A stretch of 64,000 nt of DNA from a virus. A program made the position numbers and the translations under genes. Position 1 is the stretch's first letter. Each line of letters starts with the position of its first letter. Location of the stretch: positions 32,001-96,000 of IMG/VR virus record IMGVR_UViG_3300050821_016647. One strand, written 5' to 3'. Of the stretch, positions 5,564 to 28,411 are shown piece by piece. The notes beneath the pieces are model-generated. The model was not told the DNA's origin. It saw only the letters and a program-made list of their open reading frames with translations, and did no database searches.

Positions 5564-5567
5564 GGGT

Positions 5568-7771: not shown

Positions 7772-7803
7772 GGGCTTCCCTCAAACGTGACTTGCTGTGT
7801 GAC

Positions 7804-8235
7804 TTACCTGCGGCGCGCGTACGCGCGGTGAGAAGAACGTCGACCAAAGGACGACCTGGACTTTCCACCACCCTGAACTGTCTTGCGGTGAGCGAGGTAA
7901 GCAACCGCCGCGATTCCGCCGACAACCGCGATGGCGCCGAGGATGAGCGGCGTGTTGCCGGTCGTGAGCGACGAAAGGACCGAAGAAGCGGTACCCGTCG
8001 TCGAGGCAGCAGAGCCGACAGCTGTCCCACCGCCGCCGCCGCCGCTGCCCAAGATCGTTCCCGTGTATGTCGGGTCTGATCCGTCGGGACCAAGAAGCTG
8101 AGACGTTTCCGTCCCACCCTCGGCTCCGCCCGAAATGAGGCTGTTGCCTCCACTGTCCGTTCCGTCCGAGCCCGCTGCGGGCCCGAGCTGGCCTAGACCG
8201 CGCAGCAGTGAAGTGTGAAACGCCGGCTCATCCAT
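7804..8235 (-). CDS. Membrane-anchored virion protein with Arg-rich C-terminal tail
   Basis: Start MDEPAF with GAGAGG RBS; leader ...LLRGLGQ; G/S/T linker; TM LILGAIAVVGGIAAVAYLA; tail RRSSHRAYARRR. Confidence 0.8.
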   Translation of the reverse strand: MDEPAFHTSLLRGLGQLGPAAGSDGTDSGGNSLISGGAEGGTETSQLLGPDGSDPTYTGTILGSGGGGGGTAVGSAASTTGTASSVLSSLTTGNTPLILGAIAVVGGIAAVAYLAHRKTVQGGGKSRSSFGRRSSHRAYARRR

Positions 8236-8252
8236 GATCATCTTCCTCTCGT

Positions 8253-8972
8253 TCACCTGTTGGAAATTACGTATGCCAGTCCGAACCCGGCTGCGATGCT
8301 GATGACTCCCACGGCAAGCGGCACGCCCCATCCCGCGAGCGCATCGCCGATCGTCGAAGCGGTCGTGGTTGGCGTCGCCGTTTGACCAACTCCTCGAACC
8401 GCGACACGTCCAAACCCCACTGGAAAGCTCGTGCTCCCAGGAATGGACGGTGGAGCCGAGGGCGACGAGCACGGCGGCATCTGCACTGCGCACTTCGCTC
8501 CTTCGCAACCCTCGCATGGACCGCCTGCGGCGCAGCTGCCACAGCACGGCTTGCCCGTCGCCGACGTTCCGGGCGCCGCTCCTACACCTTCGCCCACGTG
8601 CTGCATCGCCGGTACGCCGCGACGACCCATGATCGTGAGAATGGGCTCGACGCCGTGGCCGCTGTCGTCCCCACCGCCGTCCGCTCCCGCTCGAGGACGC
8701 ACCGCATAGGCCGGCGCCGGCTGAGGATAGGCGTGACCTGCCACGCCCAACTGACGTGACGGAGCTCGAGACTCCCATGCTGGCGGCACTGTGAGGCGCT
8801 CGCCGACGTGGAGTTCTCGAAACGTAGGAATCTGACCGAGTCCGACGCGCGCGGTGACAGAGGACTTGTGTGCGTTCGCACGCACGAGCTCGCTCATTCG
8901 TGCAGGATTGCCCGTCAGTTTCTGAGCAATCACCATCGGCGTGTCGCCAGGTTGGACGATGTAGAAACTCAT
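8253..8972 (-). CDS. Second LysM-domain membrane-anchored protein
   Basis: Start MSFYIVQPGDT at 8972 (ATGA overlap, GGAGG RBS); paralogous LysM; Cys cluster KPCCGSCAAGGPCEGC; C-terminal TM. Confidence 0.8.
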   Translation of the reverse strand: MSFYIVQPGDTPMVIAQKLTGNPARMSELVRANAHKSSVTARVGLGQIPTFRELHVGERLTVPPAWESRAPSRQLGVAGHAYPQPAPAYAVRPRAGADGGGDDSGHGVEPILTIMGRRGVPAMQHVGEGVGAAPGTSATGKPCCGSCAAGGPCEGCEGAKCAVQMPPCSSPSAPPSIPGSTSFPVGFGRVAVRGVGQTATPTTTASTIGDALAGWGVPLAVGVISIAAGFGLAYVISNR

Positions 8973-10165
8973 CCGGGACCTCCGTTGCCTTGCCGCCATC
9001 GCGCAAGCCGGCGAAGAATGGCGTCCGTCGTAGGATTCTGCGGCGCTCTTCCGAGACCGGTCATGTTCGGGCGATGCACTACCGTCTTCGGCTCTCCACG
9101 GCCCGTACGCCACTGTTTAGCGATTCGTTGAATGATGCCGTCCGCCTTCGTGACTACGGCTGCGGGCAGTCCTGCCAGACGCGACGACGTGTTCGACGCA
9201 TTCGGATGAGGAGGCGACGCCGGACGCTTCGGCTGCGGCTCGCCGGACTGACCACCTTCGGGCAAACACGCGTCGTACGCGCTCGTATCCTCGGCGCTGC
9301 GTCGCATCGTGTTGTCGCCGACCTCGGTCGTGTCGCGCGTAAGTCGGTCACCATCGCCGGGACGTCGGTACGTCTTCGGTGATCCGGTCGGCGCCTGCTC
9401 TTCCATCTCGAAGATGAGTGATCCTGCGATGCGGCCGTAGATCGACAGGGGGTAGTTCTGGACGAACGCGTCCTCGGGCGTCGTGCCTTGCGTCGTCAAA
9501 AACTGAAGTGCTCCACCACCCGTCGTGGGCGGTGGCGCGGAGCGGGTACTCGGGTCCGTCTGCTGCACGCTCGCCATGAAAACGATGTTGCAGGGGCCCT
9601 CGAACGCCACGTCGCAGACAGAAGGCTCACTCCAACGGTCGCAACGCAAGTCGAAGAAGCGACCGAGCTCAGGAGTAAGAACGTTACCCGGAAACGATCC
9701 GCCGTACGGAGGCGTGACGACATTTCCGACGATGGTCTCGAAGATCTGAGCCGGTGTCTGACTCACCTCGAACGCCATTCCCTCGGCGTTCTGCGCGTTG
9801 GCCAGAATCTTGGCACCCGGCGGAAGCTTGCGGATGCCCCAGAGAACGTTACCGTCGACATAACTCCACGTCGGCGTCACCACCGGCCTCTCGAGCGGGT
9901 AGGTGTACGCGCCACCACCCGTACCGAGTGGAATCTGGTCGAGAAGCGTCAGGTACTGGCGAAATCCCACCACTCGCCCGCGTTGCCCGGCGTTGAAATA
10001 CTTCGCGCACAGCACAAAGAGCTGCCGCTGCGTCGGAACCTGCGGACCGCCGTTCGTCCCGATGAAGAGGCCGAGGTCATACGGACCACCGAGTGGGTCC
10101 GAGCCAACAAGCTGCCGGTTCGGATTCAGCCCGACCGTCACGATTTCTAGGCGGCTGCGACGCAT
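8969..10165 (-). CDS. Beta-rich structural protein, candidate jelly-roll minor capsid/vertex protein with disordered C-tail
   Basis: GGAGG RBS; strand-like segments RGRVVGFRQYLTL, CNIVFMASVQQ, YGRIAGSLIFEM parallel those in 11366..11971 and 12087..13328. Confidence 0.5.
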   Translation of the reverse strand: MRRSRLEIVTVGLNPNRQLVGSDPLGGPYDLGLFIGTNGGPQVPTQRQLFVLCAKYFNAGQRGRVVGFRQYLTLLDQIPLGTGGGAYTYPLERPVVTPTWSYVDGNVLWGIRKLPPGAKILANAQNAEGMAFEVSQTPAQIFETIVGNVVTPPYGGSFPGNVLTPELGRFFDLRCDRWSEPSVCDVAFEGPCNIVFMASVQQTDPSTRSAPPPTTGGGALQFLTTQGTTPEDAFVQNYPLSIYGRIAGSLIFEMEEQAPTGSPKTYRRPGDGDRLTRDTTEVGDNTMRRSAEDTSAYDACLPEGGQSGEPQPKRPASPPHPNASNTSSRLAGLPAAVVTKADGIIQRIAKQWRTGRGEPKTVVHRPNMTGLGRAPQNPTTDAILRRLARWRQGNGGPG

Positions 10166-10189
10166 TACGCTGCCTCCCGTGCTATAAAT

Positions 10190-10220
10190 GCTGCCTGCGG
10201 CGCGTCAACGCCCAGGCAGC
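10190..10220 (+). promoter_or_regulatory. Stem-loop just downstream of a TATAAAT element, upstream of the endonuclease
   Basis: gctgcctg-c-ggcg-[cgtcaa]-cgcc-caggcagc; tataaat at 10183-10189. Confidence 0.4.
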
Positions 10221-10254
10221 GTGGCTCACCTCGACCTTTGCAGGGAGGCGAACG

Positions 10255-10299
10255 ATGAAGATTGTGAATGGTTTCCGTGCGCGTGTCGAGGTCGGTTGA
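10255..10299 (+). CDS. 14-aa leader ORF coupled to the endonuclease
   Basis: GGGAGG RBS at 10243-10248, MKIVNGFRARVEVG*, TGA immediately followed by ATG 10300. Confidence 0.35.
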   Translation: MKIVNGFRARVEVG

Positions 10300-11295
10300 A
10301 TGAAAACCGACCCGGAGAGCCGTTGGTTCACCATCTACGTTCACACGTGCGACGCGGACCCGCGAAGCAGCGGCGATCGTCTTGGTAAAGGAAAGCAGTA
10401 CGTCGGGCAGGTGGTTCATTTGCTCGGTGACGCTTCGGACACGCCGGAACTGGCAATGAAAAGGCGATGGCGAGCAAAACGTTATGAACGATCGCTGATC
10501 GGTCATACTGTCCGTCAGTTCGGAACAAAGAATTTTCGTCACGAGATTCTTGATACTGTACTCGGACAGACCGCGGCCAACCTCGCTGAAGCCGAGTGGG
10601 CTGAAAAACTCGATACCTACGAACCACACGGGTACAACAGAAGAAAATGTGGAACGCAGGGTGCACTGACTTTTGAGGAACGCAGTGCGTTTGGCCGCAT
10701 CGCGCGTCGTAAAGGAATGGAAACGCTTGGTCCAGAAGGACGAAGCGCAGCCATGTACAAGGCTAAGGAAACGTTGGGACCCGAAGGACGAAAGGCAATT
10801 AGTCGTAAAGCAATGGAGACACTCGGTCCCGAAGGACGGAGCGCGGCTGCTCAAAAAGCGAAGGAAACGCTGGGACCCGAAGGACGAAAATCGGCCACTC
10901 GCAAGGCGAATGAAACGAAGGGTCCTGAAGGTCGAAGTGCTGCCGTCCGCAAGGCGCTGAAAACAATGGGTCCTAAAGGTCGGCACGCACGTGCACTCAA
11001 ATCGAATATGACATCGGGACCAGATGGTCGAAGCGCCCGTGTGCGCAGAGCCAATGCGACGAGAGGGCCTGAAGGACGAAGAGCCTCTGCTCTCAAAGGA
11101 ATCGAGACTCAAGGTCCCGAAGGACTGAAACAACGCCTCTACAAGGCTTGGGACGTGCGTTGGTTCAAAGCGCTTCGACTCGCTCTTGCACAAAAAGACT
11201 TTGTGAGAGCTATCGGCGTTCTCAAGGCGTGCCTCTACGCCACAATGCGGAGGCTGGCCGAAGATCCTCTCTTTGGCGAACAGATAGTCGAATAG
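10300..11295 (+). CDS. Free-standing GIY-YIG homing endonuclease with nine 16-aa repeats
   Basis: FTIYVH...KQYVGQ GIY-YIG-like motif, downstream R, E (EAEW) and GYN; antisense insertion in the structural operon. Confidence 0.75.
   Translation: MKTDPESRWFTIYVHTCDADPRSSGDRLGKGKQYVGQVVHLLGDASDTPELAMKRRWRAKRYERSLIGHTVRQFGTKNFRHEILDTVLGQTAANLAEAEWAEKLDTYEPHGYNRRKCGTQGALTFEERSAFGRIARRKGMETLGPEGRSAAMYKAKETLGPEGRKAISRKAMETLGPEGRSAAAQKAKETLGPEGRKSATRKANETKGPEGRSAAVRKALKTMGPKGRHARALKSNMTSGPDGRSARVRRANATRGPEGRRASALKGIETQGPEGLKQRLYKAWDVRWFKALRLALAQKDFVRAIGVLKACLYATMRRLAEDPLFGEQIVE
10711..11142 (+). repeat. 9 x 48-nt (16-aa) coding tandem repeat K(A/G)xET(L)GPEGRxAxxx
   Basis: KGMETLGPEGRSAAMY / KAKETLGPEGRKAISR / KAMETLGPEGRSAAAQ ... 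KGIETQGPEGLKQRLY. Confidence 0.9.
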
Positions 11296-11365
11296 CGGGC
11301 CTGATGTCGCCGCGTATTGACTACTGACTATTTTTCGATCTCTCCACCTGCGCACGGGTGCCTCC

Positions 11366-11971
11366 TCACGGGCACTCCACCGCCGGGGGGACCCAAAATC
11401 CGAGCTCGCGAAGTTTGCAGGCCGCAACGTCCACGCTGATTTCGTCTACTGTGTGGTCCAAAAATTGCCAGCCGTTGAACGTAAGTACACAGTTGTACGG
11501 GGGCGCATTGGGCTCGCTCGCCGGGAACACTTGCGTGAGCATGAACTCGATCTCGATGTTCTGTTGCTTGTAGAGCGGCCACCCGCTCACCCAGCGCGAC
11601 GAGATGAGGTTCACGAAGTTGTTGAGCGGCGTGAAGTTCGGCGAGACGAGGTAGCGCGGCCCCGAGTGCACCGTGCAGCGCACCGAGATGCCTGGCGCCA
11701 TTCGGAGGTTCGCGTCGTACAGCGTCTTGAAGATGTTGCCCGCGAAGACGTTCGGCTGCTGAAGATCGTACTGGAGATTGTCTATCCAAGTTCTTTGGGC
11801 AATGGTTGTATCAAGACCAGCTTCGATGGGTTGCTGCCCCAGAGCCGCAGAGGAGAATGAACCCGATGCGTTGATCGAGATTGGAATCCGAGGAATCCCG
11901 AGGACGATCCCATACGCCGCGATCGGGTCCATGACCGCTAGGTCTTGAATGTACTGCGGCTTCGGTTCCAT
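11366..11971 (-). CDS. Beta-rich structural protein, candidate small single-jelly-roll capsid protein
   Basis: 201 aa; strands TWIDNLQYDL, ISVRCTV..RYLV, WPLYKQQNIEIEFML, YNCVLTFNGWQF; directly downstream of the MCP candidate. Confidence 0.55.
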   Translation of the reverse strand: MEPKPQYIQDLAVMDPIAAYGIVLGIPRIPISINASGSFSSAALGQQPIEAGLDTTIAQRTWIDNLQYDLQQPNVFAGNIFKTLYDANLRMAPGISVRCTVHSGPRYLVSPNFTPLNNFVNLISSRWVSGWPLYKQQNIEIEFMLTQVFPASEPNAPPYNCVLTFNGWQFLDHTVDEISVDVAACKLRELGFWVPPAVECP

Positions 11972-12012
11972 GCTCGTCCTCCTTTCCTTCTCTCGTTGAA
12001 GCTAAGCGCGTG

Positions 12013-12071
12013 AAAAACAAGATGCCCCGAAGCCACCCGACTCTCCCTCCTAGGAAAGAGAGCCGGGCAGC
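12013..12071 (-). terminator. Long hairpin plus U-rich tail after the MCP candidate
   Basis: On minus: gctgcccggctctc...gagagtcgggtggc (14-bp stem with GU pairs, 12032-12071) followed by cttgttttt. Confidence 0.55.
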
Positions 12072-12086
12072 TCCAGAGCTCTACGA

Positions 12087-13328
12087 TCAGCCGCCCGCTG
12101 ACTGCGCGGTCCCGACCACGCCCGCCGGGACGAGGTGGTTCAGGATGTACTGCTTCCAGGGTCCCCAGATCTCGAAGCCCTTGATGAGAATGGCGAGCTG
12201 GAGCGCGCCACCCTTCATGAGCACGCGATCCGTCTCGACGGCCTTCTCGACCACGATCGTGGTCGGCTCTGCCGTGTCCGCGAACGACAGCTCTGCGATC
12301 GTAACCGCCGTGAGGCCGTCCGTCGCCGGGCCGATCGGCATCACGGTGTGCGTGGTGCCGAAGCCATGGTCGTTGTTGGACAGGTATTGCTTCATGAGGT
12401 TCTGGTGGTACTCGTCCTGCGCCTTGAGCACCATCCCGATCGGGATGCCGCGCTCGAGCAGAACCGGCTTGAACAGCTTCCGGAACGGCTGGAGCATGCC
12501 CGTCATCCCCTGCGTGCGGAGGCCGCCGTAGGTGACGTCGAGCAGATCGTACGCGCGGGTCGGGTGGTACACGCCCGTGCTCGTCGCGCCGCCGGTCGTG
12601 ACCGACCCGATGCGCTGCGAGTTGATCGGGAGGAACGTGCCCGTATCACCGATGGGCGCGCCCTGGTACTTCGCGTTCACGCGGTCGACGTACCGCTGGA
12701 ACGCCTGCTGCGAAGAGCCCGCCGCGACGGCCTCGGCGTACGAGCCGAAGTAGCTCACGTCCGCCGCCAGCTCGTTGATCAGCAGGTAACGCTGCTGCAT
12801 GATCCACTGGAACTGGTAGGCGTTCATGAGGTGCCAGAGCGCGTTCTGCGCGCAGACGCCCCACTCGAGCGTGGCCGGGGTCATCGTCTGACCGCCCGAG
12901 AGTCCGAGGCCGGTCAGGTCATCGGTCGCGAACGAGTCGGGCGAGTTCGGGATCGCCCCGGATGCCGGCTGGAAGTTGATGTAGTTGCCGATCTGCGAGC
13001 CCTGCTGGGGCTCGGCAAACCCGTGCACGCCGAAGCCGATGACCAGCATGTCGACTTGGAGGATGCCGTTGATGACGAACGAGCTGTCGACGTCCTGGAC
13101 CCCCGGTACGGCCTTGGGGTTTTGGAGCACGTCGATCTCGTCACCGAACGTCCCGTCGATGAAGCCGTCGGCGACGGGCAGATCGATCGTCCACGTCACG
13201 TACTCGATGACGGGCACCTGCGTAAAACCGCAAGTGAGAACGCTGTTGACGACGTTGTCGGAGGGAGCCGCACCGAGTCCCACCATGCGGCTGGGATTCT
13301 CGAGCTTGTGCATGCTTGAGCTTTTCAT
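12087..13328 (-). CDS. Candidate major capsid protein (jelly-roll type)
   Basis: 413 aa, beta-rich, AGGAG RBS, very strong C/G third-position bias, followed by a terminator-like hairpin, next to the core protein; N-terminal leader ...ENPSRMVGLG; no HK97 features seen. Confidence 0.55.
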   Translation of the reverse strand: MKSSSMHKLENPSRMVGLGAAPSDNVVNSVLTCGFTQVPVIEYVTWTIDLPVADGFIDGTFGDEIDVLQNPKAVPGVQDVDSSFVINGILQVDMLVIGFGVHGFAEPQQGSQIGNYINFQPASGAIPNSPDSFATDDLTGLGLSGGQTMTPATLEWGVCAQNALWHLMNAYQFQWIMQQRYLLINELAADVSYFGSYAEAVAAGSSQQAFQRYVDRVNAKYQGAPIGDTGTFLPINSQRIGSVTTGGATSTGVYHPTRAYDLLDVTYGGLRTQGMTGMLQPFRKLFKPVLLERGIPIGMVLKAQDEYHQNLMKQYLSNNDHGFGTTHTVMPIGPATDGLTAVTIAELSFADTAEPTTIVVEKAVETDRVLMKGGALQLAILIKGFEIWGPWKQYILNHLVPAGVVGTAQSAGG

Positions 13329-13441
13329 CTGTTTCTCCTGCGCCTGCGGGAGACCCGCATTCGCATGATGGTTTCAAGGCGTTGGACGAACTACGAACTA
13401 TCGAGGCACGCACTCACTAAACGAGCTGAGCGCGTTGAACT

Positions 13442-15139
13442 TCAGTCCTCCGGGAACGAGGCGTACATCCCGAAGCCCTTGGGGAGAGCTCCGAGACACG
13501 ACTCATCACGAATCGCTGCCATCGCAGCAGCGTGCGTAGCGGCGATGCCGCCAGAGGTGCTCGTGCACGGAGCGCACTGCGGACCCGTGCTGGGTCCACC
13601 TGGCAGAACCGTTCCGGCCGGCGGGTCCTGGACCACGTCGCCGGTATTCGTGAGAATACCGTGCGGGGTCTGGAGCGGATGCGCAGGGTAACCGACAGGA
13701 ATGGTCGGTCCACCGCCCGGTGCATAGATCGCCGGAGGCGTGCTGCCGCCGGGCAATCCAGGAGGAGCGTTCCCTGGGCCGCCAGGCGAGTACGGCGCCT
13801 GGTTCGGCTGGGACGCTGGAATCACCATGGACGTCGGTGCAATCGGCGTGTTCACGGTGAGAGGCGAGGGAGCGTTCTGTCCCACACCGCGTGCCTTGGG
13901 CCCAGGGTCCCTTAGCGCCGGACGGCGACCGACACCGCGGGGGAGACCCGCGAGCGGAGTCGACGTCGTGGGAGCTGCCGCGGTTCCGGCTGCCGGAGTG
14001 GCCGCCGTCACCGCCGCCTGCGCTTCGATCTCGGCGAGGTAGAGCTGCTGTCCGAGCGCCGTCGAACCGATCATGGAAGCCATGACCGACTTGAACAGGT
14101 TGCCGAACAGAGCCGCGCCCGCGCCGAGCATCATGCCCTGAAGGGCCGCGCGGCCCCACGGGGAATCGACGAACGCCGCCGCGATCCCTGGCACCGCAGC
14201 CACGCCGAACTGCGCGGCCATGGACTGCCAGGATGGGAATGCCTGAGTCGCGACGTCGTTCGGAACGACCTGCGTGCCGCCCGGTGGAACGCTGTTCGCT
14301 GGCTGACCTGCCGCAACGGCTGTCGTCGACATGTACCGTCCGACGAAGTCCGCGAGACCGTAGCCGAGGATGCCGGTGATTCCGACGAGCACGAGCTCAC
14401 CACCAGACAGCGGGTTCGAGAGCACATAGCCCTCAGCACCGATCGTGTCGTACGCCTCGCGCTCGCTGTAGCCGGACCGACCGTAGGCCGGCAACCGGTG
14501 CGAACGCGGAGTGCGACGTGCATGTGACCGACGACGGCTCGAGCTGCGGCGCGTCTTGCGGTGCCGACGCGGAGCCGCACGACGAGTGCGACGCGCATGC
14601 GACCGACGGACCGAACGACGACGCCGACGCGGCGCAGAGAGCCCGAGGCGACGCCGACGCCGACGAATGCCCTTCAGGGCCGCCTTGCGGTGCCGACGCG
14701 GTTGCCCGAACCACTCCTTCGCGCGCGCCCTCTTCCGGCGGCGACGCGGAGCTGCGCGACGAACCGCACGACGCCGACGCCGACGGACCGGAGCCGCGTG
14801 GTGCCGACGCGCCGCGAGGCGACGCCGACGCCGACGGATGCCCTTGCGAGCGGCACGACGGTGACGGATCGGTTGTCCCTTCCAATCGGAAGCCTTCGCC
14901 CTGCGACGCCGACGGCGCTTGGGGGCTGCTGCCGCGGGGGCTGCAACGCGACGCCGACGCCGACGACGCGGGGCGGCTGCCGGAGCGGCTGCCCGGCGAC
15001 GACGCCTGCGCGGAGCTGCGGCGGGGGCTGCGGCCCTGCGACGGCGACGGCGCGGCGCTGCGGCGGACGACTTCACGAAGTGGCCCCTCGAGTTTCTTTT
15101 GCGACCGCGGGCTGCGCGCGACTTGCGGCGTGACTTCAT
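13442..15139 (-). CDS. Protamine-like Arg-rich core protein fused to membrane segments and a Pro-rich tail (alternative start 15502)
   Basis: AGGGAG RBS before MKSRRK at 15139; repeated APRRRRRR(A)n; duplicated W(K/F)GQPxRHR(R/K)AAxKG; hydrophobic helices after LSNPLSGG; two RGVG motifs. Confidence 0.8.
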   Translation of the reverse strand: MKSRRKSRAARGRKRNSRGHFVKSSAAAPRRRRRRAAAPAAAPRRRRRRAAAPAAAPRRRRRRRVAAPAAAAPKRRRRRRAKASDWKGQPIRHRRAARKGIRRRRRRLAARRHHAAPVRRRRRRAVRRAAPRRRRKRARAKEWFGQPRRHRKAALKGIRRRRRRLGLSAPRRRRRSVRRSHARRTRRAAPRRHRKTRRSSSRRRSHARRTPRSHRLPAYGRSGYSEREAYDTIGAEGYVLSNPLSGGELVLVGITGILGYGLADFVGRYMSTTAVAAGQPANSVPPGGTQVVPNDVATQAFPSWQSMAAQFGVAAVPGIAAAFVDSPWGRAALQGMMLGAGAALFGNLFKSVMASMIGSTALGQQLYLAEIEAQAAVTAATPAAGTAAAPTTSTPLAGLPRGVGRRPALRDPGPKARGVGQNAPSPLTVNTPIAPTSMVIPASQPNQAPYSPGGPGNAPPGLPGGSTPPAIYAPGGGPTIPVGYPAHPLQTPHGILTNTGDVVQDPPAGTVLPGGPSTGPQCAPCTSTSGGIAATHAAAMAAIRDESCLGALPKGFGMYASFPED

Positions 15140-15360
15140 TGGCAGTGTCTCCCTAGTGGAAAAACCCGGCGCTTTGGCCGACTTCGAAACGGTAACGAAG
15201 TAGCCTGTAGACGTCAAACGTCTCACATGATTGGCAGTCGTCGAACGCGGTTTACGACCACGTGAATAGCGACGGATCACCGAGAATTTGGCTCTCGAAT
15301 GCTTGCGACGTCGCGGCGCACTATTCGACTTGTCGGAGCGAGTTTTCGTGGCTACTCGCT

Positions 15361-15427
15361 TTGTAATACGCTTGTGTGCAGCGCTCGTAGACCGATTTCG
15401 CGATACACGCTTAGGTTTTGTATTACG
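15361..15427. promoter_or_regulatory. Two copies of TTGTA(A/T)TACG upstream of the core/MCP genes
   Basis: TTGTAATACG-ctt-GTGTGC at 15361-15379 and TTGTATTACG at 15418-15427; same motif at 28111 and 43736. Confidence 0.5.
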
Positions 15428-15543
15428 AGCGCCGGCTTCGTCGCTTTCACTCCTGAATGCGTTCATTCGAGCCGCATAATCCCCGCCGGATGACTTCGCC
15501 ATCCACAACGAATACGCCCACGCGGGCGGAACGACAACTCGCT

Positions 15544-15981
15544 CTACGGGAACACGTACCCGCGGTCGTCTACGATGCAGCCGTCTCCCAGTGACAACTT
15601 GTAAATGCGACCAGCTTTCCACAGAGTGGGTTGCCGCGATTTGAACGGGTGATGGAAGCCACCACTGGCTCGCTTGCCCTTGCGCACGTAAAGAATCTGC
15701 GCAACTTCTCCGACTTTCTTCCAGCCATCCTTCGGAATCTTCGGCAGCGTCGCGAGCACCGCTTGGTAGTCGGCACCGAAGTAGCGCCGGTGCGATCGAT
15801 TCATCTCGACCGGACGCCGCGTCTTCTTGAAGGGTCCAAAAAAGACATCACACTTCGGCAACACGACCCCTTCCTGGTCGTGGAACGTCCCATAGGATGC
15901 CGGCAAGCGAATGGTCTTACCGTTGGCCATCTCGAAGACCACGCGGTCCGACTCGACACGAATGGACGGCGACTCGCTCAC
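15544..15981 (-). CDS. Basic hypothetical protein (145 aa)
   Basis: GTG start overlapping the upstream TGA (GTGA); K/R-rich globular sequence. Confidence 0.7.
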   Translation of the reverse strand: MSESPSIRVESDRVVFEMANGKTIRLPASYGTFHDQEGVVLPKCDVFFGPFKKTRRPVEMNRSHRRYFGADYQAVLATLPKIPKDGWKKVGEVAQILYVRKGKRASGGFHHPFKSRQPTLWKAGRIYKLSLGDGCIVDDRGYVFP

Positions 15982-16379
15982 GACGCCCCCTGCTGAAGCG
16001 AGCTCGAGTACCCGCCGGGGGCCCCGCCTGAAGCAACGTAATTGAGCATGTTGGCCGTGGCCCACGTTTGGTAACCACTAACGGAGGGTGCCGTCCCAGC
16101 CGGCAACGACGCAACGTACATCGCCGGCAGCTGTGCAATCGAAGCGGCAAGCGCCGTCGACTGCGCCGCAGTCGGCTGCATCCCTCCGATGCCTGCGTTG
16201 GTCGCAAGGATCTGATTCAAGATCCCGTTCTGCACGTCCGCGCTCGGGGGCCAGACGCTGTTCTGATACGTGGTGTAAACCATCCACCCGACGCCGCCGA
16301 CGACGACCGCGCCCAGACCCAGCAGAAGCCACTGCTGAGCCTGGGGGGAAAGCGGGTTACGTCGGGAGCGCCGTCTCAT
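15978..16379 (-). CDS. Small membrane protein: Arg-rich N-terminus, NP motif, TM
   Basis: MRRRSRRNPLSPQAQQWLLLGLGAVVVGGVGWMVY. Confidence 0.8.
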   Translation of the reverse strand: MRRRSRRNPLSPQAQQWLLLGLGAVVVGGVGWMVYTTYQNSVWPPSADVQNGILNQILATNAGIGGMQPTAAQSTALAASIAQLPAMYVASLPAGTAPSVSGYQTWATANMLNYVASGGAPGGYSSSLQQGAS

Positions 16380-16392
16380 TCGCCGACCGCGA

Positions 16393-16692
16393 TCAGATGG
16401 CCGCGAGATTCGACGCGTAGGGCTGGAAGATGGATGGCAGATTCGCAACGGCGGCCTGACCGGCCGGCGTCTGAAGCCATGCCTGCTCGTTCGCAGTCAC
16501 CGGCGTCGAACCCGCCGGTAGCGTCGCGGCATACGCGGCGTTGAGCTGGGACGCCTCGTAGATCGTGTACACGATCCCGGCCGCGGTAAGCGTCCCGAGG
16601 CCGATGAGCAGCCACTCGATTCCGGTCGGATTCTCTTTGCCGTACGCGCGAGAGCTGCTGAAACGACGGCGTCGATGATGTCTTCTTCGCAT
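16393..16692 (-). CDS. Small membrane protein, paralogue of 15978..16379
   Basis: MRRRHHRRRRF...KENPTGIEWLLIGLGTLTAAGIVYTIY. Confidence 0.8.
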   Translation of the reverse strand: MRRRHHRRRRFSSSRAYGKENPTGIEWLLIGLGTLTAAGIVYTIYEASQLNAAYAATLPAGSTPVTANEQAWLQTPAGQAAVANLPSIFQPYASNLAAI

Positions 16693-16722
16693 GGGAATCT
16701 CCTGTTGAGGTGACCGACGTTA

Positions 16723-17646
16723 TCAGATCCTTCTTGGACCTGGAACTTTGCCGACTCCACGCACCATCTGCTGCGAAAACGCGTAGTCCTTTGCCTCTTT
16801 CACCGGAGTGCCGTCTGGAAAACACGGCAATCCTCTCTCGAGCCCGACAGGCACGTAAGACGCGCTGTCAGCTTGAGGCGCGAAGGCGTGAGCCATCGGA
16901 AAGACGCCAACGCCTGTTGGTTGAGCTGCTGGCTCTGTCTGCACAGGCACTGCGCCCACTCCAATGAAGTCGCCGTGGTCCGGTTCTTTTCCCATGGTCG
17001 TCGGAGCTCCGTTAGGTGTGGAAGACATTGTCCCGCTGATGGGGTCGACCCACCATTCCTTGGTCGCCGGATAGGACTCGTCCACGCCGTATTTCTCTGA
17101 CGACGGATCGACCTTCATCCAATTACCGTTGTCGCCGAGCACGGCGCAAATGACGTGGGTTGCCTGAGAGGTCCCGTACGCCTGACCTACGATCCGTGTC
17201 TCGATGCCAATCGAGAGCATTGCCGATGCGAACGCGATGCAGCGGTCATCACAATCGGCGGCAGGCATGCAGAGCCCATGTTCGTCCAGACAAAGCGTAC
17301 GAGCAGGAGTCGCCATGAGCTCGGTGTTGACCGGGTCCTGGACGTAAACGGTCCTTTTTCGAATCTCGTTGAGGATGGCTTGCGCCTGTCCTTTGACGGT
17401 CTTCGGCTTGCCCGCGGCAATGAGAACTTTCCCGGCGAACGCGCGGAGCCGCGGGTCATTACGGCCGTCGCGAATGTACTTCGACATCTCGTTGAGCGAG
17501 TAATTCGTCCCTTCAACCCCCGGTGGATGTCGGTCCTGAATCACCGGCGTTCCAAGCGCTTTCGCCGCCTCGGTCGCAGACGGAGCGAAGCCTTTGCCGA
17601 AACCAGCAATCGGGCGGGGAAATGCGGGAACGTCGGAATCGCTCAT
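16723..17646 (-). CDS. Transglutaminase-like (papain-fold) enzyme, candidate maturation protease or cross-linker
   Basis: Start MSDSDV two nt after the upstream stop; ADCDD (Cys), THV (His), WMKVDPS (Asp) catalytic-triad pattern; upstream YVQDP motif. Confidence 0.8.
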   Translation of the reverse strand: MSDSDVPAFPRPIAGFGKGFAPSATEAAKALGTPVIQDRHPPGVEGTNYSLNEMSKYIRDGRNDPRLRAFAGKVLIAAGKPKTVKGQAQAILNEIRKRTVYVQDPVNTELMATPARTLCLDEHGLCMPAADCDDRCIAFASAMLSIGIETRIVGQAYGTSQATHVICAVLGDNGNWMKVDPSSEKYGVDESYPATKEWWVDPISGTMSSTPNGAPTTMGKEPDHGDFIGVGAVPVQTEPAAQPTGVGVFPMAHAFAPQADSASYVPVGLERGLPCFPDGTPVKEAKDYAFSQQMVRGVGKVPGPRRI

Positions 17647-17648
17647 GG

Positions 17649-18224
17649 TCACCCCGCCAGTAAAACGTTCGGTGCGACCCAGTAATTGTTGAAGACCTGC
17701 GTCCACCCGGCCCCTGGCGATCCGACCTGGTACACGGCCTTGAGGTGGTGCGGCATCGCCGTCACACCGGTAGGACACCAGATCCAATACTCACCGACCT
17801 GATGCCACTGACCTTGACCGGCTTGCGGCGCCTTCGACGGCATCGCCCCGTGCGTGTACCAGAAGCCGCGCGGATCGAACTTGGGAGGAATCTGCGCGCC
17901 AGCGGCGACGAGCGTCGGCGCAGCTTGAATGTTGGTCTTGTGGCCTTCAACGATCGAAAGAGACGTGTGCTCCGGAGGAGGCGACATCGCAACATCAGGG
18001 CGCATCAGTGCTCCAACACCTTCCGGCTCTTTCGCGGCTCCTTCCGACTCCTTCCCTACTCCCTCCGGTTCCTTCCCTACACCCTCCGGCTCCTTCACCG
18101 TACTCTTCGTCGGTGCCGAGGTATCCGGCCACTTCTTCCTCTCTCCCCCAGGAAGCAGACCCAGACCTCGAATGATCCCCTGAGGGAAGATGTAGTCCTT
18201 GTCGGGATTGCGATCGTCACTCAT
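17649..18224 (-). CDS. Virion protein with KEPEGVG heptad repeats and aromatic/Gly-rich C-terminus
   Basis: AAGGAG RBS, ATGA overlap; leader KDYIFPQGIIRGLG; 4 x 21-nt repeat at about 18011-18095. Confidence 0.75.
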   Translation of the reverse strand: MSDDRNPDKDYIFPQGIIRGLGLLPGGERKKWPDTSAPTKSTVKEPEGVGKEPEGVGKESEGAAKEPEGVGALMRPDVAMSPPPEHTSLSIVEGHKTNIQAAPTLVAAGAQIPPKFDPRGFWYTHGAMPSKAPQAGQGQWHQVGEYWIWCPTGVTAMPHHLKAVYQVGSPGAGWTQVFNNYWVAPNVLLAG

Positions 18225-18745
18225 CGAGCTCTCCTTCGTGGCTTCGCGCGTCGTACGCGTCTGAACCTTCGTTGCGTTCCGTGACCGATCGAAAGCGGGT
18301 TTGACTTCATTCCCGCCGGAGCAACCGCGGGTCGCATCGCCGACCATGCGATGAACCCGAGGAGTCCGAGAAGCGCAGTTCCACCGAGCACCCACGCCCA
18401 CGTGGGCACGCTCGAGGTCGCGGGAGCTGCGGCTACGGGAACCGGCGCTGTGTACGTCGGAAGAGGAAGAGTGCCAGGAAACGACGTGGGCACGATCGCC
18501 GTCGAGCCGACAGGATTGAGTCCGTCCGTCGAAGCTGGAGGCGTCACACCGGGTATCGGGATCTCCACGCCCGATACGAGCGGCGTCGTATCCGCAGTCA
18601 CAGCCGGAGCCGGCGGCGGCTCGGGCGGTGGCGTAAGTGGCGGGAGAGTGGTCGGAGCGTACATGACCCCGGCAGATACCTGGCCTAGACCTGTAGGAAC
18701 AGAGGCGCCGTTTTGGGGCGTAGCAGGCGTAGCTGTTGCTTCCAT
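18221..18745 (-). CDS. Pro/Thr-rich membrane protein with NP motif and Arg-rich tail
   Basis: TGLGQ near N-terminus; TM WAWVLGGTALLGLLGFIAW; KSNPL...RRFRRVRRAKPRRRAR. Confidence 0.8.
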   Translation of the reverse strand: MEATATPATPQNGASVPTGLGQVSAGVMYAPTTLPPLTPPPEPPPAPAVTADTTPLVSGVEIPIPGVTPPASTDGLNPVGSTAIVPTSFPGTLPLPTYTAPVPVAAAPATSSVPTWAWVLGGTALLGLLGFIAWSAMRPAVAPAGMKSNPLSIGHGTQRRFRRVRRAKPRRRAR

Positions 18746-18790
18746 GCGCCTACAGTATCAGGCACTCCCGAAGTCGTCGAGAATGGGCTT

Positions 18791-19573
18791 CTACGTCGAA
18801 GACGACGCAGGCGAAGAAGCCTCGGAAACGAGATAAATCACGCCACCGAGGACCGCAATTCCGAGCAGTCCAGCTATCACCATAGCCGTCGTAGACATTC
18901 CTGCCGGCGCTACGGATGGGGCGTAATACTGCGCCGGCTGAGGCTGTCCCGCTGCGGCCATCGTAGCGAGAATCGCCTGCGCCGACGCCGAGGAACGTGC
19001 CGTAGGCGTTGTCCCGGGAGCGGATGGGTACGTAGGGGAGTACGTCCCAGGAAGTCCCGATTGAAGCGTCGTGTTCACGACGAACGATGGCGCAGAAGAA
19101 GGAACGGGAATGACTGGCGATTCTCCTGGAGCCAACGGCTGAATTTTTCCGACTCCTGAGGGGAGACCCATGACGCCTCCGATAGCAGCACCTGATCCGA
19201 GCTTGCTCGTCTTGGACACGTAGTGCCCGCCGTGGCCCGTACTCTCGACGAAGAGTCCGTCAACGCAGATCAAGATCTCATTCTTACCCCCGGACGTGTA
19301 CTTACCAGTCTTAGCGTCGTATCCGGTGTAAACGAACTTGAAGAGGTATCCTCCATAAGTGAAATATGGAGAGACCCCGATCTGGGTCATGTAGTAGTTG
19401 AAGACCGGGCCGTAGTTGAGCGAGACGCCGTCGATGGTGACGTACGGACCGTGGCCTTGCGTTATCACTCGCAGCCAGCGCTTGCACTGGCGAGCGCCGG
19501 TCAGAACGATGCCTTCCGGCGGTGATGGATTTACGCCGAGACCTCGGACCAGCGCTGGGCTGAACGCGTGCAC
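18791..19573 (-). CDS. Membrane-anchored virion protein (Tyr/Gly-rich domain)
   Basis: GTG start MHAFSPALVRGLG just after the upstream stop; YFTYGG motif shared with 19582..20922; C-terminal TM. Confidence 0.7.
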   Translation of the reverse strand: MHAFSPALVRGLGVNPSPPEGIVLTGARQCKRWLRVITQGHGPYVTIDGVSLNYGPVFNYYMTQIGVSPYFTYGGYLFKFVYTGYDAKTGKYTSGGKNEILICVDGLFVESTGHGGHYVSKTSKLGSGAAIGGVMGLPSGVGKIQPLAPGESPVIPVPSSAPSFVVNTTLQSGLPGTYSPTYPSAPGTTPTARSSASAQAILATMAAAGQPQPAQYYAPSVAPAGMSTTAMVIAGLLGIAVLGGVIYLVSEASSPASSST

Positions 19574-19581
19574 GATCTGCT

Positions 19582-20922
19582 CTAATCGAGCAAATAGTAC
19601 GCGCCCACACCCGCACCACCGACGAGCAAGAGCGCCCAGAGCCACGCGTACGACGTCGTCGCAGCGGCGTACGGGATGAAGACCCAGTACGCGGGCCCGG
19701 TGTTGATCCACTGTCCCGTGATGCCGGCGGCTGCGAGTTGCGCAGGGACCTGCGTCGGCCTCGGAAGGGTCGGGCCACCGATCCCCAGAAGTTGGTTCAC
19801 GTTGCTGACCACGTAGTACGTGTTGACGATGGCAAGCGAATACGCCGGCATCGGGTACCACTGCCAGAAGTGCGGGCGAACCATGCACCACGCGCCAGGC
19901 AAAGAAACCCCGGGCGGAGGTGCCGTCGGTCGCGCAACCCCCGTGCTGTTGTACACCCACGCGAACTGCCCCAGTCCGGCAGCGGTCTGGAATACGGGGA
20001 TTCCCGGTTGAGGCGCCGTAGGCGGAAGCACCATGGCCAAGAACTGCGCGCTGAGCACCGCCTGGTGAACGGAAGGAATCCCGCTCGCGGAGTAGACGAG
20101 CGCGACAGGAGTCAGAGCACCAGCAACCACAGGCGCAGTCTGCACAACCGTGACCGCACCAACGGTGCACTGCTGGATCGGACCGTTCGTCAGCGTAGGG
20201 TTGTAGCGGAAGTGCGACCCGCCGTACGTGAAGTAGATCCAGCCATCGGATGCCGTCGATACGCCGCCGACCGCCAGTCGCGAAGACAGCGCAGGAGCCA
20301 CCTGAAGAAAGAGCGCGCTCGTCGAGGACAGACCCTTCCAGCCCGAACCGGCTGGGCAAGCAAACGGATTCGTCAGCGTCACCTGCCCGAGACCGGTCGG
20401 CTTGCGACCGACACCGACGATATCCGCTGCCCCGTCCGCAAAAGCGCCGACACCGGTCGGCAGTCCGTTGATGCCTTGGAAGTGCGAAGGCGGGTTGTAG
20501 TGCGTTCCGTGCGGGAAAAGCTCCTCTCCGCCGGCCAGCAGCTCCGCTGCCTCCCCAGACGACCCTGCGGCTGGACCGAGTCTGCCGCCCCCCTCTCCGC
20601 CCACATTTGTCGCCGACCCAGAAGATGTACCTCCTGCACCCATGTTGCCGTGAGGACCCTCACTGCCTCGCGGCTCAGGGGTCAAGTTGTACCCTCCGCG
20701 ATTGACCTCGTGCCATCCGCTTGGCTGCCCTACGCCCGCCGGCATTCCGGCGACGCCGTGAAAGTGCTCGGGGACCTTGTACACGGCACCTTTCGCGTCA
20801 GGCCGGACCAGTGTTAGGCCAAGTCCGGTAATCGGCATCGCGAACGCTCGGTCTCGAGCAGGACTCGCAGGATTCCGTCCGAGTCCAAGGTGACGAACGT
20901 CGAAGGCGCAATCCTGGGTCAT
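19582..20922 (-). CDS. Modular membrane-anchored virion protein
   Basis: 7 G[LV]G motifs; CPAGSGW and YFTYGG motifs; C-terminus TSYAWLWALLLVGGAGVGAYYLLD. Confidence 0.8.
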   Translation of the reverse strand: MTQDCAFDVRHLGLGRNPASPARDRAFAMPITGLGLTLVRPDAKGAVYKVPEHFHGVAGMPAGVGQPSGWHEVNRGGYNLTPEPRGSEGPHGNMGAGGTSSGSATNVGGEGGGRLGPAAGSSGEAAELLAGGEELFPHGTHYNPPSHFQGINGLPTGVGAFADGAADIVGVGRKPTGLGQVTLTNPFACPAGSGWKGLSSTSALFLQVAPALSSRLAVGGVSTASDGWIYFTYGGSHFRYNPTLTNGPIQQCTVGAVTVVQTAPVVAGALTPVALVYSASGIPSVHQAVLSAQFLAMVLPPTAPQPGIPVFQTAAGLGQFAWVYNSTGVARPTAPPPGVSLPGAWCMVRPHFWQWYPMPAYSLAIVNTYYVVSNVNQLLGIGGPTLPRPTQVPAQLAAAGITGQWINTGPAYWVFIPYAAATTSYAWLWALLLVGGAGVGAYYLLD

Positions 20923-20996
20923 GGTCGATCTCTCCTACCTTGTCGTCTGTCTCGACAGGGTAAACTAGCCGAGCGGGTACCGCAACTCTGCGTTTT

Positions 20997-21551
20997 TCAG
21001 TCGATCAGATAGTAGCCAGCGGCCCCAGCCGCTCCGAGCCCGAGTAGCACCCAAAGCCAGGTATACGACGTTGGCGCAGCAGTGACGGGCATCGCGCCTT
21101 GAGAGGTGAGCGTCACAAGCGCCGGATTGAACGTCATGGGCGCCCCGGCGACCACGATGGGCGCCGAGCCTCCGCTCTGATGAGCCGCGACAGAGCTCTT
21201 GCTCGCGCAGACGCTCACGCTACCGAAGCCGGGCGAGAACATGATCGGCAAGCCTGACGACAACTTGAAGTAGAAGTTGCCGTCTGCGGCAGCTCGCGAC
21301 GGATACAAGGAAGCCCAGTTTCTTATCCACTTGACGAGAGCGCCGGTGAGCTCGGGCACCTTCGGCGACGATGGGCTCGGAGGGTACGCGTTCACCCAAG
21401 AATAGCCCGCCGGACAGGAAATAGGCTTCGCCGACCAGTTCGGAGGCGTGAGTCCCAGCCCCCTCGGTCGAAGACGCGCTGAAAACGCGCGGTCGCTCGG
21501 GGCCGGCACGCGACCGAAACCTTGAATCGGAAAAGCGTAGTCCTTGGACAT
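20997..21551 (-). CDS. Short paralogue of 19582..20922
   Basis: Start MSKDYAF; double leader; CPAGYSW; C-terminus TSYTWLWVLLGLGAAGAAGYYLID. Confidence 0.8.
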   Translation of the reverse strand: MSKDYAFPIQGFGRVPAPSDRAFSARLRPRGLGLTPPNWSAKPISCPAGYSWVNAYPPSPSSPKVPELTGALVKWIRNWASLYPSRAAADGNFYFKLSSGLPIMFSPGFGSVSVCASKSSVAAHQSGGSAPIVVAGAPMTFNPALVTLTSQGAMPVTAAPTSYTWLWVLLGLGAAGAAGYYLID

Positions 21552-21553
21552 GG

Positions 21554-21838
21554 TCACTCCGTAGCAAAGTAGATGAGGGCCCCGATCACTGCAACTCCGA
21601 CGGCTCCGGCAATCACGTAAGGAACCAACGACGGTGCTGCCGCAGCCGACGCCGTTCCCGGCGCGGTCACTGCAAGACCCTGATCCAGACTCGCTTGCGC
21701 CGCGACGACTCTCGCTTGAGCCGCTTGAATAGCGGTCGTGTTTCCGCTCGCAGCAGCTTGTGCCAGCGCCGTCTGCGAATTTTGCCACTCGGTAAATTGC
21801 GCCGTCAGCTGCGCTTGAGTCTGTCCGAGGCCGCTCAT
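21554..21838 (-). CDS. Small helical membrane-anchored protein
   Basis: MSGLGQ start, Q/A-rich helix, C-terminal TM. Confidence 0.8.
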   Translation of the reverse strand: MSGLGQTQAQLTAQFTEWQNSQTALAQAAASGNTTAIQAAQARVVAAQASLDQGLAVTAPGTASAAAAPSLVPYVIAGAVGVAVIGALIYFATE

Positions 21839-23310: not shown

Positions 23311-23358
23311 GCGCCCAGCCTACATCGGTCCACTCTGGAGCGCTACGAAACGCTACGT

Positions 23359-28135: not shown

Positions 28136-28411
28136 TCAACGGCGAGCGCGAGCGCGCTTCGGAGGCACTTCTTCCTCCTCTTCCTCGTCGTCTTCCTCTT
28201 CCTCTTCCTCGTCCTCTGGGCGCTCGTAGCCAGGCTCGAACCGTTCGAGGTACTCCTCGATCATCTCGTCGGCGAGCGCGACCGCATCATCGAGAACGAC
28301 TTCGAACTTCTTCTTGGGGTTGCCGCCGAGACCGGAGAGCGCCGCAGACGCGAACGCGAGCCACGCTTGACGTTCTTCGAGTTCACTGATGATGCCACCG
28401 AGCTTACTCAT
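28136..28411 (-). CDS. Small protein with long acidic tract
   Basis: ATGA overlap with thyX; EDEEEEEEDDEEEEEE then KRARARR. Confidence 0.75.
   Translation of the reverse strand: MSKLGGIISELEERQAWLAFASAALSGLGGNPKKKFEVVLDDAVALADEMIEEYLERFEPGYERPEDEEEEEEDDEEEEEEVPPKRARARR

Follow-up and report, generated by a model that had tools for sequence, protein, structure and literature searches.

The head of phage T4 has the HK97 fold and is matured by a serine protease: an N-terminal capsid targeting sequence common to unrelated internal proteins brings them into the head as it assembles and is then removed by the gp21 prohead protease, which acts at an L/I-x-E site. RiPP and bacteriocin leaders end in GG, GA or GS and are cut by a papain-like C39 peptidase, which in most cases is a domain of an ABC exporter. 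The ASFV protease pS273R cuts at GG-X and the poxvirus protease I7L at AG-X. Both enzymes process core proteins (for I7L, see PMC1198262). The adenovirus protease adenain (AVP) has the consensus sites (M/I/L)XGX-G and (M/I/L)XGG-X (PMC7998265, PMC4246237), and the adenovirus protein pVI is cut at IVGL|G (PMC4246237). LapG cuts LapA at a di-alanine, removing an N-terminal module (PMC10990149).

The window analysed here, a stretch of 64,000 nucleotides, comes from the complete genome (127 kb) of an uncultivated bacterial virus; the host appears to be bacterial, judging from the Shine-Dalgarno (SD) sites, integrases, GH25 and SLT genes. Literature searches turned up no description of this virus group, and none of a virion protease with a transglutaminase fold. 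A sequence-only reading had noticed the signature [AI]F-x(3-7)-G[LVF]G nine times, and a six-frame regex scan recovered all nine, on the minus strand of the window (8191-8223, 16750-16782, 17596-17625, 18159-18191, 19535-19567, 20818-20847, 20878-20907, 21453-21488 and 21513-21536). The description of these motifs as mostly N-terminal fits eight of the nine, which lie within residues 1-36 of genes whose starts have SD-like sites; the remaining one lies at the C-terminus of an enzyme and is no leader. The same scan found a tenth match at 28325-28357, which is not in the structural block.

The structural block comprises 19 genes on the minus strand (6116..25065; 5564 aa) and is syntenic with L001 and L002. 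When residues were permuted inside each protein, preserving composition, the extended motif was expected 0.27 times in the block (maximum 3 in 5000 shuffles) against the nine observed; with the G[LVF]G sites held fixed, the expectation was 1.0 (maximum 6 in 5000). The G[LVF]G core was found 51 times in the 19 genes, compared with 14.2 ± 3.7 expected (maximum 29, z = 9.5), a 3.6-fold enrichment, and there was no such enrichment in the genome beyond 6116-25065. The control tripeptides A[LVF]G, G[LVF]A, G[AST]G, P[LVF]G and G[IM]G were at or below expectation in the block. The block is Gly-rich, and GGG is enriched as well. Around the core, the context consensus is [P/ILVM]-[T/R]-G-[VLF]-G-[Q/R/K]-x-P: the position two before the first Gly is I, L, V or M in 19 of 47 sites and Pro in 18, and the residue following the block sites is enriched in Gln (5.8-fold) and Lys (4.9-fold), with Arg, Ala and Leu common too. 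The resemblance of P-T-G-[LV]-G to an LPXTG sortase signal was rejected by eye, because the residue that LPXTG has between P and T is lacking. Fifteen of the 51 sites fall within residues 1-40, stretches that make up 13.7% of all residues; N-terminal sites also occur in 21835-23310 and 21554-21838, and near-C-terminal ones in 13442-15133 and 8969-10165. The extended motif is a subclass of this wider G[LVF]G code. The unit under selection is the G[LVF]G site itself, with [AI]F marking a subclass present only in the clade near this genome.

Besides the enzyme, five genes of the minus strand bear the extended leader: a virion-block gene of 191 aa (17649..18224), with the leader at 18159-18191 and three P-E-G-V-G repeats; a membrane-anchored gene of 260 aa (18791..19573), whose leader (19535-19567) begins at residue 3; a tail-anchored gene of 446 aa (19582..20922), with two leader modules in tandem (20878-20907, 20818-20847) plus five further G[LV]G sites; a tail-anchored gene of 184 aa (20997..21551), also with tandem modules (21513-21536 and 21453-21488); and a small tail-anchored gene (7804..8241, alternative start 8235), with the leader at 8191-8223. 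Two of these genes therefore carry tandem copies of the motif. The leaders are translated: SD-like sites lie 5-12 nt 5' of the starts, namely GAAGGAG for 18224 (8 nt before the ATG), ACGGAG for 21551, GGTAGGAG for 20922 and GAGAGGAAG for 8241/8235, and AGGAG precedes the start of the putative capsid gene at 13328. The only start without such a site is the GTG at 19573, which abuts the upstream stop; its orthologue in L004 starts at the same position with a leader of the M-Q-V-F type. The proteins had been called otherwise unrelated, which holds apart from the motif itself and some shared anchors, the only similarity between leader-bearing proteins detected by BLASTP. In each of two gene pairs, the partners share C-terminal anchors.

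The enzyme adjoining the leader-bearing genes (16723..17646, minus strand, 307 aa) is a transglutaminase-fold cysteine enzyme and a candidate maturation protease. It matches Transglut_core (PF01841) over residues 80-181 with 31.6 bits, above the cut-off of 23 (E 2.2e-7), and the catalytic triad Cys132-His164-Asp180 (307-aa numbering) is invariant across 22 homologues with identities down to 32%. The gene is syntenic in all relatives examined. Pfam was run on 40 proteins and PHROGs on 10: the enzyme was the only Pfam-recognisable protein within the block, so that no other block protein matched a protease family in Pfam, and PHROGs gave no match for the block proteins scanned. Transglut_core was also the sole Pfam match of the enzyme, with none to a model of the bacterial transglutaminase-like cysteine proteinases (BTLCP). 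In the AF2 model the core (residues 45-220) has a pLDDT above 90 and both flanks are disordered; the four G[LVF]G sites of the enzyme (residues 15-17, 229-231, 245-247 and 297-299) all lie in flanking stretches with pLDDT below 50, and the whole-enzyme model placed neither arm in the active site. VIA matched the model to 3kd4 (Z 13.8, 146 aligned, rmsd 3.3), factor XIII (Z 11.6), PNGase (Z 11.1) and LapG (Z 10.3), with TG2/TG3 in the range Z 10-12, and Foldseek gave probability 1.00 to 3isr, 4xz7 and 3kd4. The VIA matches thus include hydrolases as well as cross-linkers, and the fold does not fix the chemistry, because transglutaminase-fold enzymes also cross-link, deamidate or cut isopeptides.

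Both ends of the enzyme carry the extended motif. The N-terminal leader (17596..17625) reads AF...GFG, followed by K-GFAPSA; among homologues it is variable or absent (alignment A2). Distant leaderless homologues start M-[SA]-GFAPSA, exactly past the N-terminal site, and the Lys after this site is kept in all leader-bearing homologues. The C-terminal motif (16750..16782) reads D-Y-A-F...R-G-V-G and is followed by an 8-residue tail; it is conserved in P0122-P0124, P0130 and P0135, and constitutes the sole similarity that BLASTP finds to the next gene's leader.

The putative major capsid protein (12087..13328, minus strand, 413 aa; GC3 0.91) has an N-terminal arm that contains R-M-V-G-L-G-A-A-P at about 13263-13289. 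It has more than 405 homologues, on contigs of 55-198 kb; the gene was found on only four MAG contigs, all short (Acidimicrobiales, Binatia, Polyangiaceae). Among the matches listed, the N-terminal-arm site is present in 120 of 120 homologues, with the pattern R-x-[IFV]-G-[LMFV]-G-[QA]-x-P and [MQL] before [IFV]-G-L-G. In these 120, the stretch ahead of the site ranges from 2 to 49 residues, being merely 2-6 residues in some; two sites occur in 22 homologues, and the residue after the site is most often Q (43) or A (36), less often R, M, K or D (Ala here). The AF2 model is beta-rich (pLDDT 81); as regards the double jelly-roll lineage (PRD1-adenovirus type), it has a weak best VIA match to PRD1 P3 (Z 5.5, 162 aligned, rmsd 5.8) and weaker ones (Z 4-5) to the capsid proteins of SPV1, HHIV-2, HCIV-1, PBCV-1 and STIV. 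Foldseek found nothing significant in PDB and BFVD (papillomavirus L1 and other jelly rolls, E > 1e-3). In the Atlas, clusters labelled 'phage major capsid' came up at 0.93, although few features were shared. In the complete genome, searches gave no match to Phage_capsid or Terminase_6N family models, which could miss divergent members, none to an FtsK_SpoIIIE-type ATPase, and none to Peptidase_C5 (adenain) at E <= 1.

The code extends to independent relatives. G[LVF]G was found 41 times in L004 (13.4 expected), 22 times in L005 (9.6 expected) and 12 times in L003 (4.6 expected); syntenic relatives have [AVI]F-type leaders, and the motif is kept across genomes whose capsid proteins share 40-90% identity. 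The orthologues of 7804..8241 in L003 and L004 retain an [A]F...G[VF]G leader. Both leader modules of 19582-20922 are nearly invariant in P0164-P0166 at an overall identity of 44-59%, and the region downstream of the tandem leader varies (alignment A3); since the leader is better kept than the sequence that follows, it would itself have a sequence-specific role. In the distant relatives L010-L012 the enzyme lacks a leader and G[LVF]G is only weakly in excess, indicating that the dense code is clade-specific. The sequence-only reading had proposed a shared recognition or docking leader. Such a leader is real, translated and conserved, and lies beside an enzyme that bears the sites itself, so that it is best read as serving recognition or docking in connection with a protease; what has to be amended is the selected unit, which is G[LVF]G, in 51 copies over 19 genes, and not the longer signature.

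On balance we favour, with moderate confidence, the view that the G[LVF]G sites are maturation cleavage sites accompanied by a docking leader, and that the protease is the Cys-His-Asp enzyme at 16723-17646. We infer that the sites are cut, that this enzyme is the cutter, what the [AI]F element binds and any routing of the proteins to the shell. The virion proteins, among them the putative capsid protein, the membrane-anchored proteins and an Arg-rich core protein, would be made as precursors, as would the enzyme, a core of roughly 210 residues between disordered arms carrying four sites. While the particle assembles, the enzyme would trim short leaders off their N-termini and short tails off their C-termini, and would remove disordered linkers. 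The D-x-[AI]-F element upstream of eight N-terminal sites and of the site at the enzyme C-terminus may be a second, sequence-specific docking element, which would either raise the affinity for the enzyme as an exosite or keep the precursor inside the particle during assembly, up to the moment of cleavage. Maturation is favoured because the G[LVF]G excess is specific and local (structural block only, flat controls, relatives alike); because the sites sit where proteases cut, in N-terminal stretches and in the disordered flanks of the enzyme; because the putative capsid protein fits, its site being kept throughout the listed homologues; because leaderless enzyme homologues begin exactly past the N-terminal site; because the enzyme is the block's sole Pfam-recognisable protein, syntenic and with an invariant triad; because its fold family holds true proteases that cut at small residues (LapG); and because a cut before the last Gly would give [ILVMP]-x-G-x|G, matching the adenovirus consensus and IVGL|G of pVI. 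Against it speak several observations: the 2-6 residues ahead of the site in some capsid homologues leave little to remove, the fold is also that of cross-linking, deamidating and isopeptide-cutting enzymes, the code thins out in L010-L012, where the enzyme is leaderless, two other protease-like genes are present, and AF2 placed neither arm in the active site.

The short arm of those capsid homologues would be better accommodated if the motif were an uncut short linear docking motif, binding shell, scaffold or inner membrane, with the adjacent enzyme doing another job. The downstream x-x-P is conserved equally to the upstream residues, the leader sequence is under selection, and tandem copies would allow multivalent binding. 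However, a single partner would have to serve the capsid protein, the enzyme and many unrelated proteins; moreover, disordered linkers hold clusters of the sites, which also lie on either side of the enzyme core, homologues without a leader begin right at the site, and cutting and docking can coexist. We therefore consider docking alone unlikely. Somewhat less probable still is that the sites are cut by another protease. JAB enzymes cut after Gly-Gly, and a RadC-like JAB gene (26182-27255) lies just upstream of the block, here as in the distantly related L010; outside the window, G000 104082-105422 codes for an S8 subtilase, and a host enzyme might also act. Nevertheless, RadC-like JAB genes are common in phages not known to have such a code, and neither the JAB nor the S8 gene is inside the block or has flanking sites, whereas the transglutaminase-fold gene belongs to the block, carries such sites on its flanks and keeps its syntenic place in every relative examined.

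The fold matches to factor XIII and to TG2/TG3, the Gln and Lys enrichment after the site and the conserved Lys after the N-terminal site of the enzyme would suit a true transglutaminase or transpeptidase, covalently linking virion proteins through these residues or, by an acyl-enzyme, onto an amine; we give this little credence. The residue after the site varies, both among capsid homologues, where the copy in this genome has Ala, and among the block sites; cross-linking there was rejected as a general mechanism because this residue is not conserved. Most microbial members of the fold with a known role are, besides, hydrolases (LapG, PeiW/PeiP). In a more elaborate and similarly improbable form, the enzyme would also trim, but an acyl-enzyme formed at G[LVF]G would be resolved onto amines, either Lys/Gln after other sites or a new N-terminal Gly; the corresponding sortase- or transglutaminase-like ligation, stitching shell, core and membrane proteins into a covalent network whose participants are selected by the D-x-[AI]-F leader, is just as doubtful. 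It is hardly credible that the code arises from a Gly-rich composition, from wrongly called starts or from paralogues with leaders that were duplicated recently: the Gly-richness of the block, the GGG enrichment and the anchors shared by two gene pairs would be expected from it, but composition-preserving shuffles never attained the observed counts, related tripeptides were not enriched, SD-like sites precede the starts, BLASTP found no paralogy past motif and anchors, and the motif is kept across divergent genomes. Composition, start calling and paralogy were rejected on these grounds.

Under the maturation reading, the locus most resembles adenovirus, in which a viral cysteine protease cuts capsid, core and membrane-lytic precursors near their ends, as predicted here. 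The site is of the Gly-x-Gly type with, in many copies, an aliphatic residue four positions up, and would fit X-G-X|G if cut before the last Gly; an Arg-rich core protein is among the candidate substrates, and the short C-terminal peptide behind the site in 13442-15133 and in the enzyme recalls pVIc behind IVGL|G. It differs in that the enzyme is transglutaminase-like and not adenain/Ulp1, Pro equals aliphatic residues in frequency at the fourth position, x-x-P follows the site, the D-x-[AI]-F leader element is extra and the host appears bacterial. The (M/I/L)XGX-G consensus would be a closer parallel than the RiPP double-Gly leader suggested by the sequence-only reading, which is alike in logic only: hydrophobic residues are spaced along a leader whose end is a Gly-containing site, with a papain-like cysteine peptidase as the enzyme that would recognise it, but the site is G-x-G, with no GG/GA end, the substrates are structural proteins of 140-450 residues and not small peptides, and no C39 peptidase or ABC match was found among 20 block and neighbouring proteins. 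LapG and the BTLCP family share the fold, the Cys-His-Asp triad and a cut at a small-residue pair that removes an N-terminal module (predicted here); unlike LapG, with one periplasmic adhesin as substrate and a di-Ala site, the enzyme would act on virion proteins whose G[LVF]G sites number in the dozens. The T4 head is alike in the short N-terminal leader on unrelated proteins and, as predicted here, a protease acting at a short consensus, but no T4-type or other caudovirus prohead protease (S77/S78), and no such capsid family, was found in the block Pfam scans or the genome search with Phage_capsid. ASFV and poxviruses, large DNA viruses with an inner membrane, likewise have structural precursors cut at small-residue sites by a viral cysteine protease (predicted here), and differ in their Ulp1-like clan enzymes, eukaryotic hosts and other site patterns.

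Adenoviruses, virophages, polintons and giant viruses are characterised by maturation at Gly-rich sites through a dedicated viral cysteine protease, and such proteolytic maturation lies outside the module that those viruses share with bacterial tectiviruses (PMC4405056). The same logic appears to operate, through an unrelated enzyme of transglutaminase fold and an additional leader element, in a widespread family of large viruses of bacterial type. If true, virion maturation would have evolved convergently, proteases would gain a new specificity, G-[LVF]-G-x-x-P, together with a recognition leader that is portable, and for an uncultivated group of viruses the mature virion proteome could be predicted directly from sequence alone.

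The window covers bases 32001-96000 of a single record of 127,529 bp (61.6% GC, genes mostly on the minus strand), which the collection classes among complete virus genomes, with direct terminal repeats. A bacterial host is indicated by Shine-Dalgarno-like sites and by the presence of two tyrosine integrases, a GH25 lysozyme, an SLT-like protein, Sak4, a helicase and a primase. The 19 co-oriented structural genes analysed here form one minus-strand block (6116-25065), and Pfam and PHROGs recognised next to nothing among their products. No packaging ATPase of terminase or FtsK type was recognised in the genome; the only ATPases seen were a classical AAA ATPase (record positions 10168-12015) and a Mg-chelatase-like ATPase (record positions 87-1691).

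The nine copies of [AI]F-x(3-7)-G[LVF]G described in the sequence-only reading were recovered at the same places by a regex scan, all on the minus strand. They lie in six genes: eight inside the first 36 residues, with two tandem modules each in 19582-20922 and 20997-21551, and the ninth 10 residues from the C-terminus of a transglutaminase-fold protein (16723-17646, 307 aa). Within-protein residue shuffles of the block gave 0.27 copies (maximum 3 in 5000), and 1.0 (maximum 6) when the G[LVF]G sites were held fixed. Mis-called starts do not account for the leaders: five of the six starts have Shine-Dalgarno-like sites 5-12 nt ahead, and the sixth (GTG, 19573) adjoins an upstream stop codon and coincides with the start of its orthologue in the related contig L004. 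The leaders are also kept in related contigs, in the form [AVI]-F-x(2-14)-G-[LFV]-G. Recent duplication does not account for them, since BLASTP among the block proteins found only the motif itself and some C-terminal anchors shared by the leader-bearing proteins. A tenth match (28325-28357, minus strand; A-F...S-G-L-G-G) falls outside the block, at residue 24 of a protein of 96 residues; its context is hydrophobic, and it is probably due to chance.

The extended motif is part of a larger G[LVF]G code. The block holds 51 such sites in 5564 residues versus 14.2 ± 3.7 expected (z 9.5), the control tripeptides (A[LVF]G, G[LVF]A, G[AST]G, G[IM]G, P[LVF]G) are at or under expectation there, and the rest of the genome has no G[LVF]G excess apart from glycine-zipper membrane helices. 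The 47 non-membrane copies, aligned on the site, gave the consensus [P or I/L/V/M]-[T/R]-G-[V/L/F]-G-[Q/R/K]-x-P. The first 40 residues hold fifteen of the 51 sites, roughly double what is expected, and several sites are close to a C-terminus, at a distance of 10-30 residues. A subset of the sites is marked by the [AI]F element, usually with an Asp two residues ahead. Outside the window, an SLT-like protein (record positions 118435-119193, minus strand) has R-R-L-R-G-L-G-Q at residue 40, ahead of its lytic transglycosylase domain, and may be a further processed virion protein.

The transglutaminase-fold protein has a Pfam Transglut_core match over the cut-off, and its Cys132, His164 and Asp180 are invariant in 22 homologues. 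Its AF2 model comprises a confident core (residues 45-220, pLDDT above 90) and disordered arms (1-23 and 222-307) holding all four of its own sites. In structure the core matched transglutaminase-fold proteins, among them 3kd4, a putative protease (Z 13.8), factor XIII (11.6), LapG (10.3) and PeiW/PeiP (8.6-8.9). Where homologues have an N-terminal extension, its last residues are G-[LVF]-G-K and a conserved GFAPSA follows immediately; distant homologues lacking the extension start M-[SA]-GFAPSA. Immediately after the core, G-D-F-[IV]-G-V-G is nearly invariant, and at the C-terminus the full extended motif is followed by 8 residues. In the related contig L002, the transglutaminase-like gene (4838-7483) is an 881-residue ORF with 11 G-x-G sites; the part around its catalytic Cys/His gives two matches separated by about 250 residues, which could reflect an insertion or duplication inside the gene.

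Conservation of the sites extends to the putative capsid protein (12087-13328, minus strand), whose gene has the top GC3 of the genome and a strong Shine-Dalgarno site. Its AF2 model is beta-rich (pLDDT 81) and jelly-roll-like; the matches to PRD1 P3 and to other capsid proteins of the vertical jelly-roll type are weak (Z of 5.5 or less), making the protein a possible member of the double jelly-roll lineage. Metagenomic contigs of up to 198 kb hold more than 405 homologues of it, all unnamed. In all of the 120 homologues listed, the N-terminal arm includes R-x-[IFV]-G-[LMFV]-G-[QA]-x-P, with 2 to 49 residues ahead of the site; 22 have a second site. Four related contigs (L001-L004) share block synteny, and the G[LVF]G excess recurs in L004 (41 vs 13.4), L003 (12 vs 4.6) and the more distant L005 (22 vs 9.6). 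The leader of 19582-20922 is under its own selection, because both tandem modules stay almost unchanged in orthologues that share 44-59% identity overall, whereas the stretch that follows is variable, with indels. In the most distant relatives (L010-L012) just a few core sites are left, located in the capsid arm, at the boundary behind the enzyme core and in the core protein.

Proteolytic maturation of the structural proteins at G[LVF]G sites by this enzyme is the most economical reading, and we consider it somewhat probable. The enzyme would be made as a precursor, free its own core and trim leaders, tails and linkers of the other proteins. LapG, a well-studied protease of the same fold, removes an N-terminal module and cuts at a pair of small residues (PMC10990149). 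If cleavage fell ahead of the final Gly, the sites would take the form [ILVMP]-x-G-x|G, in agreement with the adenovirus protease consensus (M/I/L)XGX-G (PMC7998265); in adenovirus pVI, a cut at IVGL|G frees an 11-residue C-terminal peptide (PMC4246237). The N-terminal half of an Arg-rich protein (13442-15133, minus strand) is long and protamine-like, with A-A-A-P-R6 repeats. The protein also has hydrophobic helices and two R-G-V-G sites, and at its C-terminal end a conserved G-F-G precedes a tail of some 8 residues with the ending F-P-E-D; this tail is kept in L003, L004, L005 and L011 and, by analogy with pVIc, could be a released peptide. D-x-[AI]-F is best read as a putative element for docking, either to the enzyme or to the assembling particle. 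The leader common to six genes had been proposed as a recognition or docking signal to a protease or the shell; the observation is confirmed and extended, and the interpretation finds partial support, with docking as the favoured part and cleavage at the sites putative.

A docking motif that is never cut would suit the conserved x-x-P downstream of the site and the capsid homologues with almost no leader, and we regard it as unlikely. Cross-linking or transpeptidation is less likely still. It agrees with the fold of the enzyme and with the Gln or Lys that often follows the site, but this position varies: it is Ala in the capsid protein of this genome and Q (43), A (36) or others in the family. 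Cutting by another protease is just as doubtful: the genome encodes a RadC-like JAB domain protein (26182-27255, minus strand, Pfam E 2.3e-29), just upstream of the block, and a second protease-like gene, of the S8 subtilase family (record positions 104082-105422, minus strand, outside the window, Pfam E 2.5e-8), but neither is within the block or has sites of its own. In the distant relative L010, a RadC gene (1489-2136) is comparably placed. An artefact is very improbable, being excluded by the shuffle, control-tripeptide, start-site and BLASTP controls.

Two further features of the block were observed. An opposite-strand gene (10300-11295, plus strand) lies between two genes of the capsid module, in a stretch of lower GC (57%). 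It encodes a protein that has, by eye, a GIY...YVG-like N-terminal sequence and contains the unit E-T-L-G-P-E-G-R repeated 8-9 times in tandem, with no significant Pfam match. It looks like an inserted mobile (homing-endonuclease-like) gene, since the orthologues of its neighbours are adjacent in L001, L003 and L004. A LysM-like domain at the N-terminus is common to the products of 6116-7771 and 8253-8978 (both minus strand; 50% over 64 residues in BLASTP, under threshold in Pfam); the former also contains eight G[LV]G sites along with long H-G-G-G-G repeats.

The proposed G[LVF]G system would work like adenovirus maturation, yet it is not a member: no adenain was found in the genome and the enzyme fold differs. 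The same holds for T4 capsid-targeting leaders, as neither an HK97-type capsid nor Terminase_6N was found. The suggested likeness to RiPP double-Gly leaders holds as a loose analogy and nothing beyond. In eukaryotic double jelly-roll viruses, a dedicated maturation protease has been described as belonging to the morphogenetic module, outside the part common with tectiviruses (PMC4405056). Our literature search turned up no publication that deals with this virus family or with a virion protease of transglutaminase fold. Maturation proteolysis with targeting leaders is already known in viruses; what would be new here, if the maturation reading is true, is the enzyme family and the site code, in a putative system carried by an uncharacterised, widespread group of large bacterial viruses.
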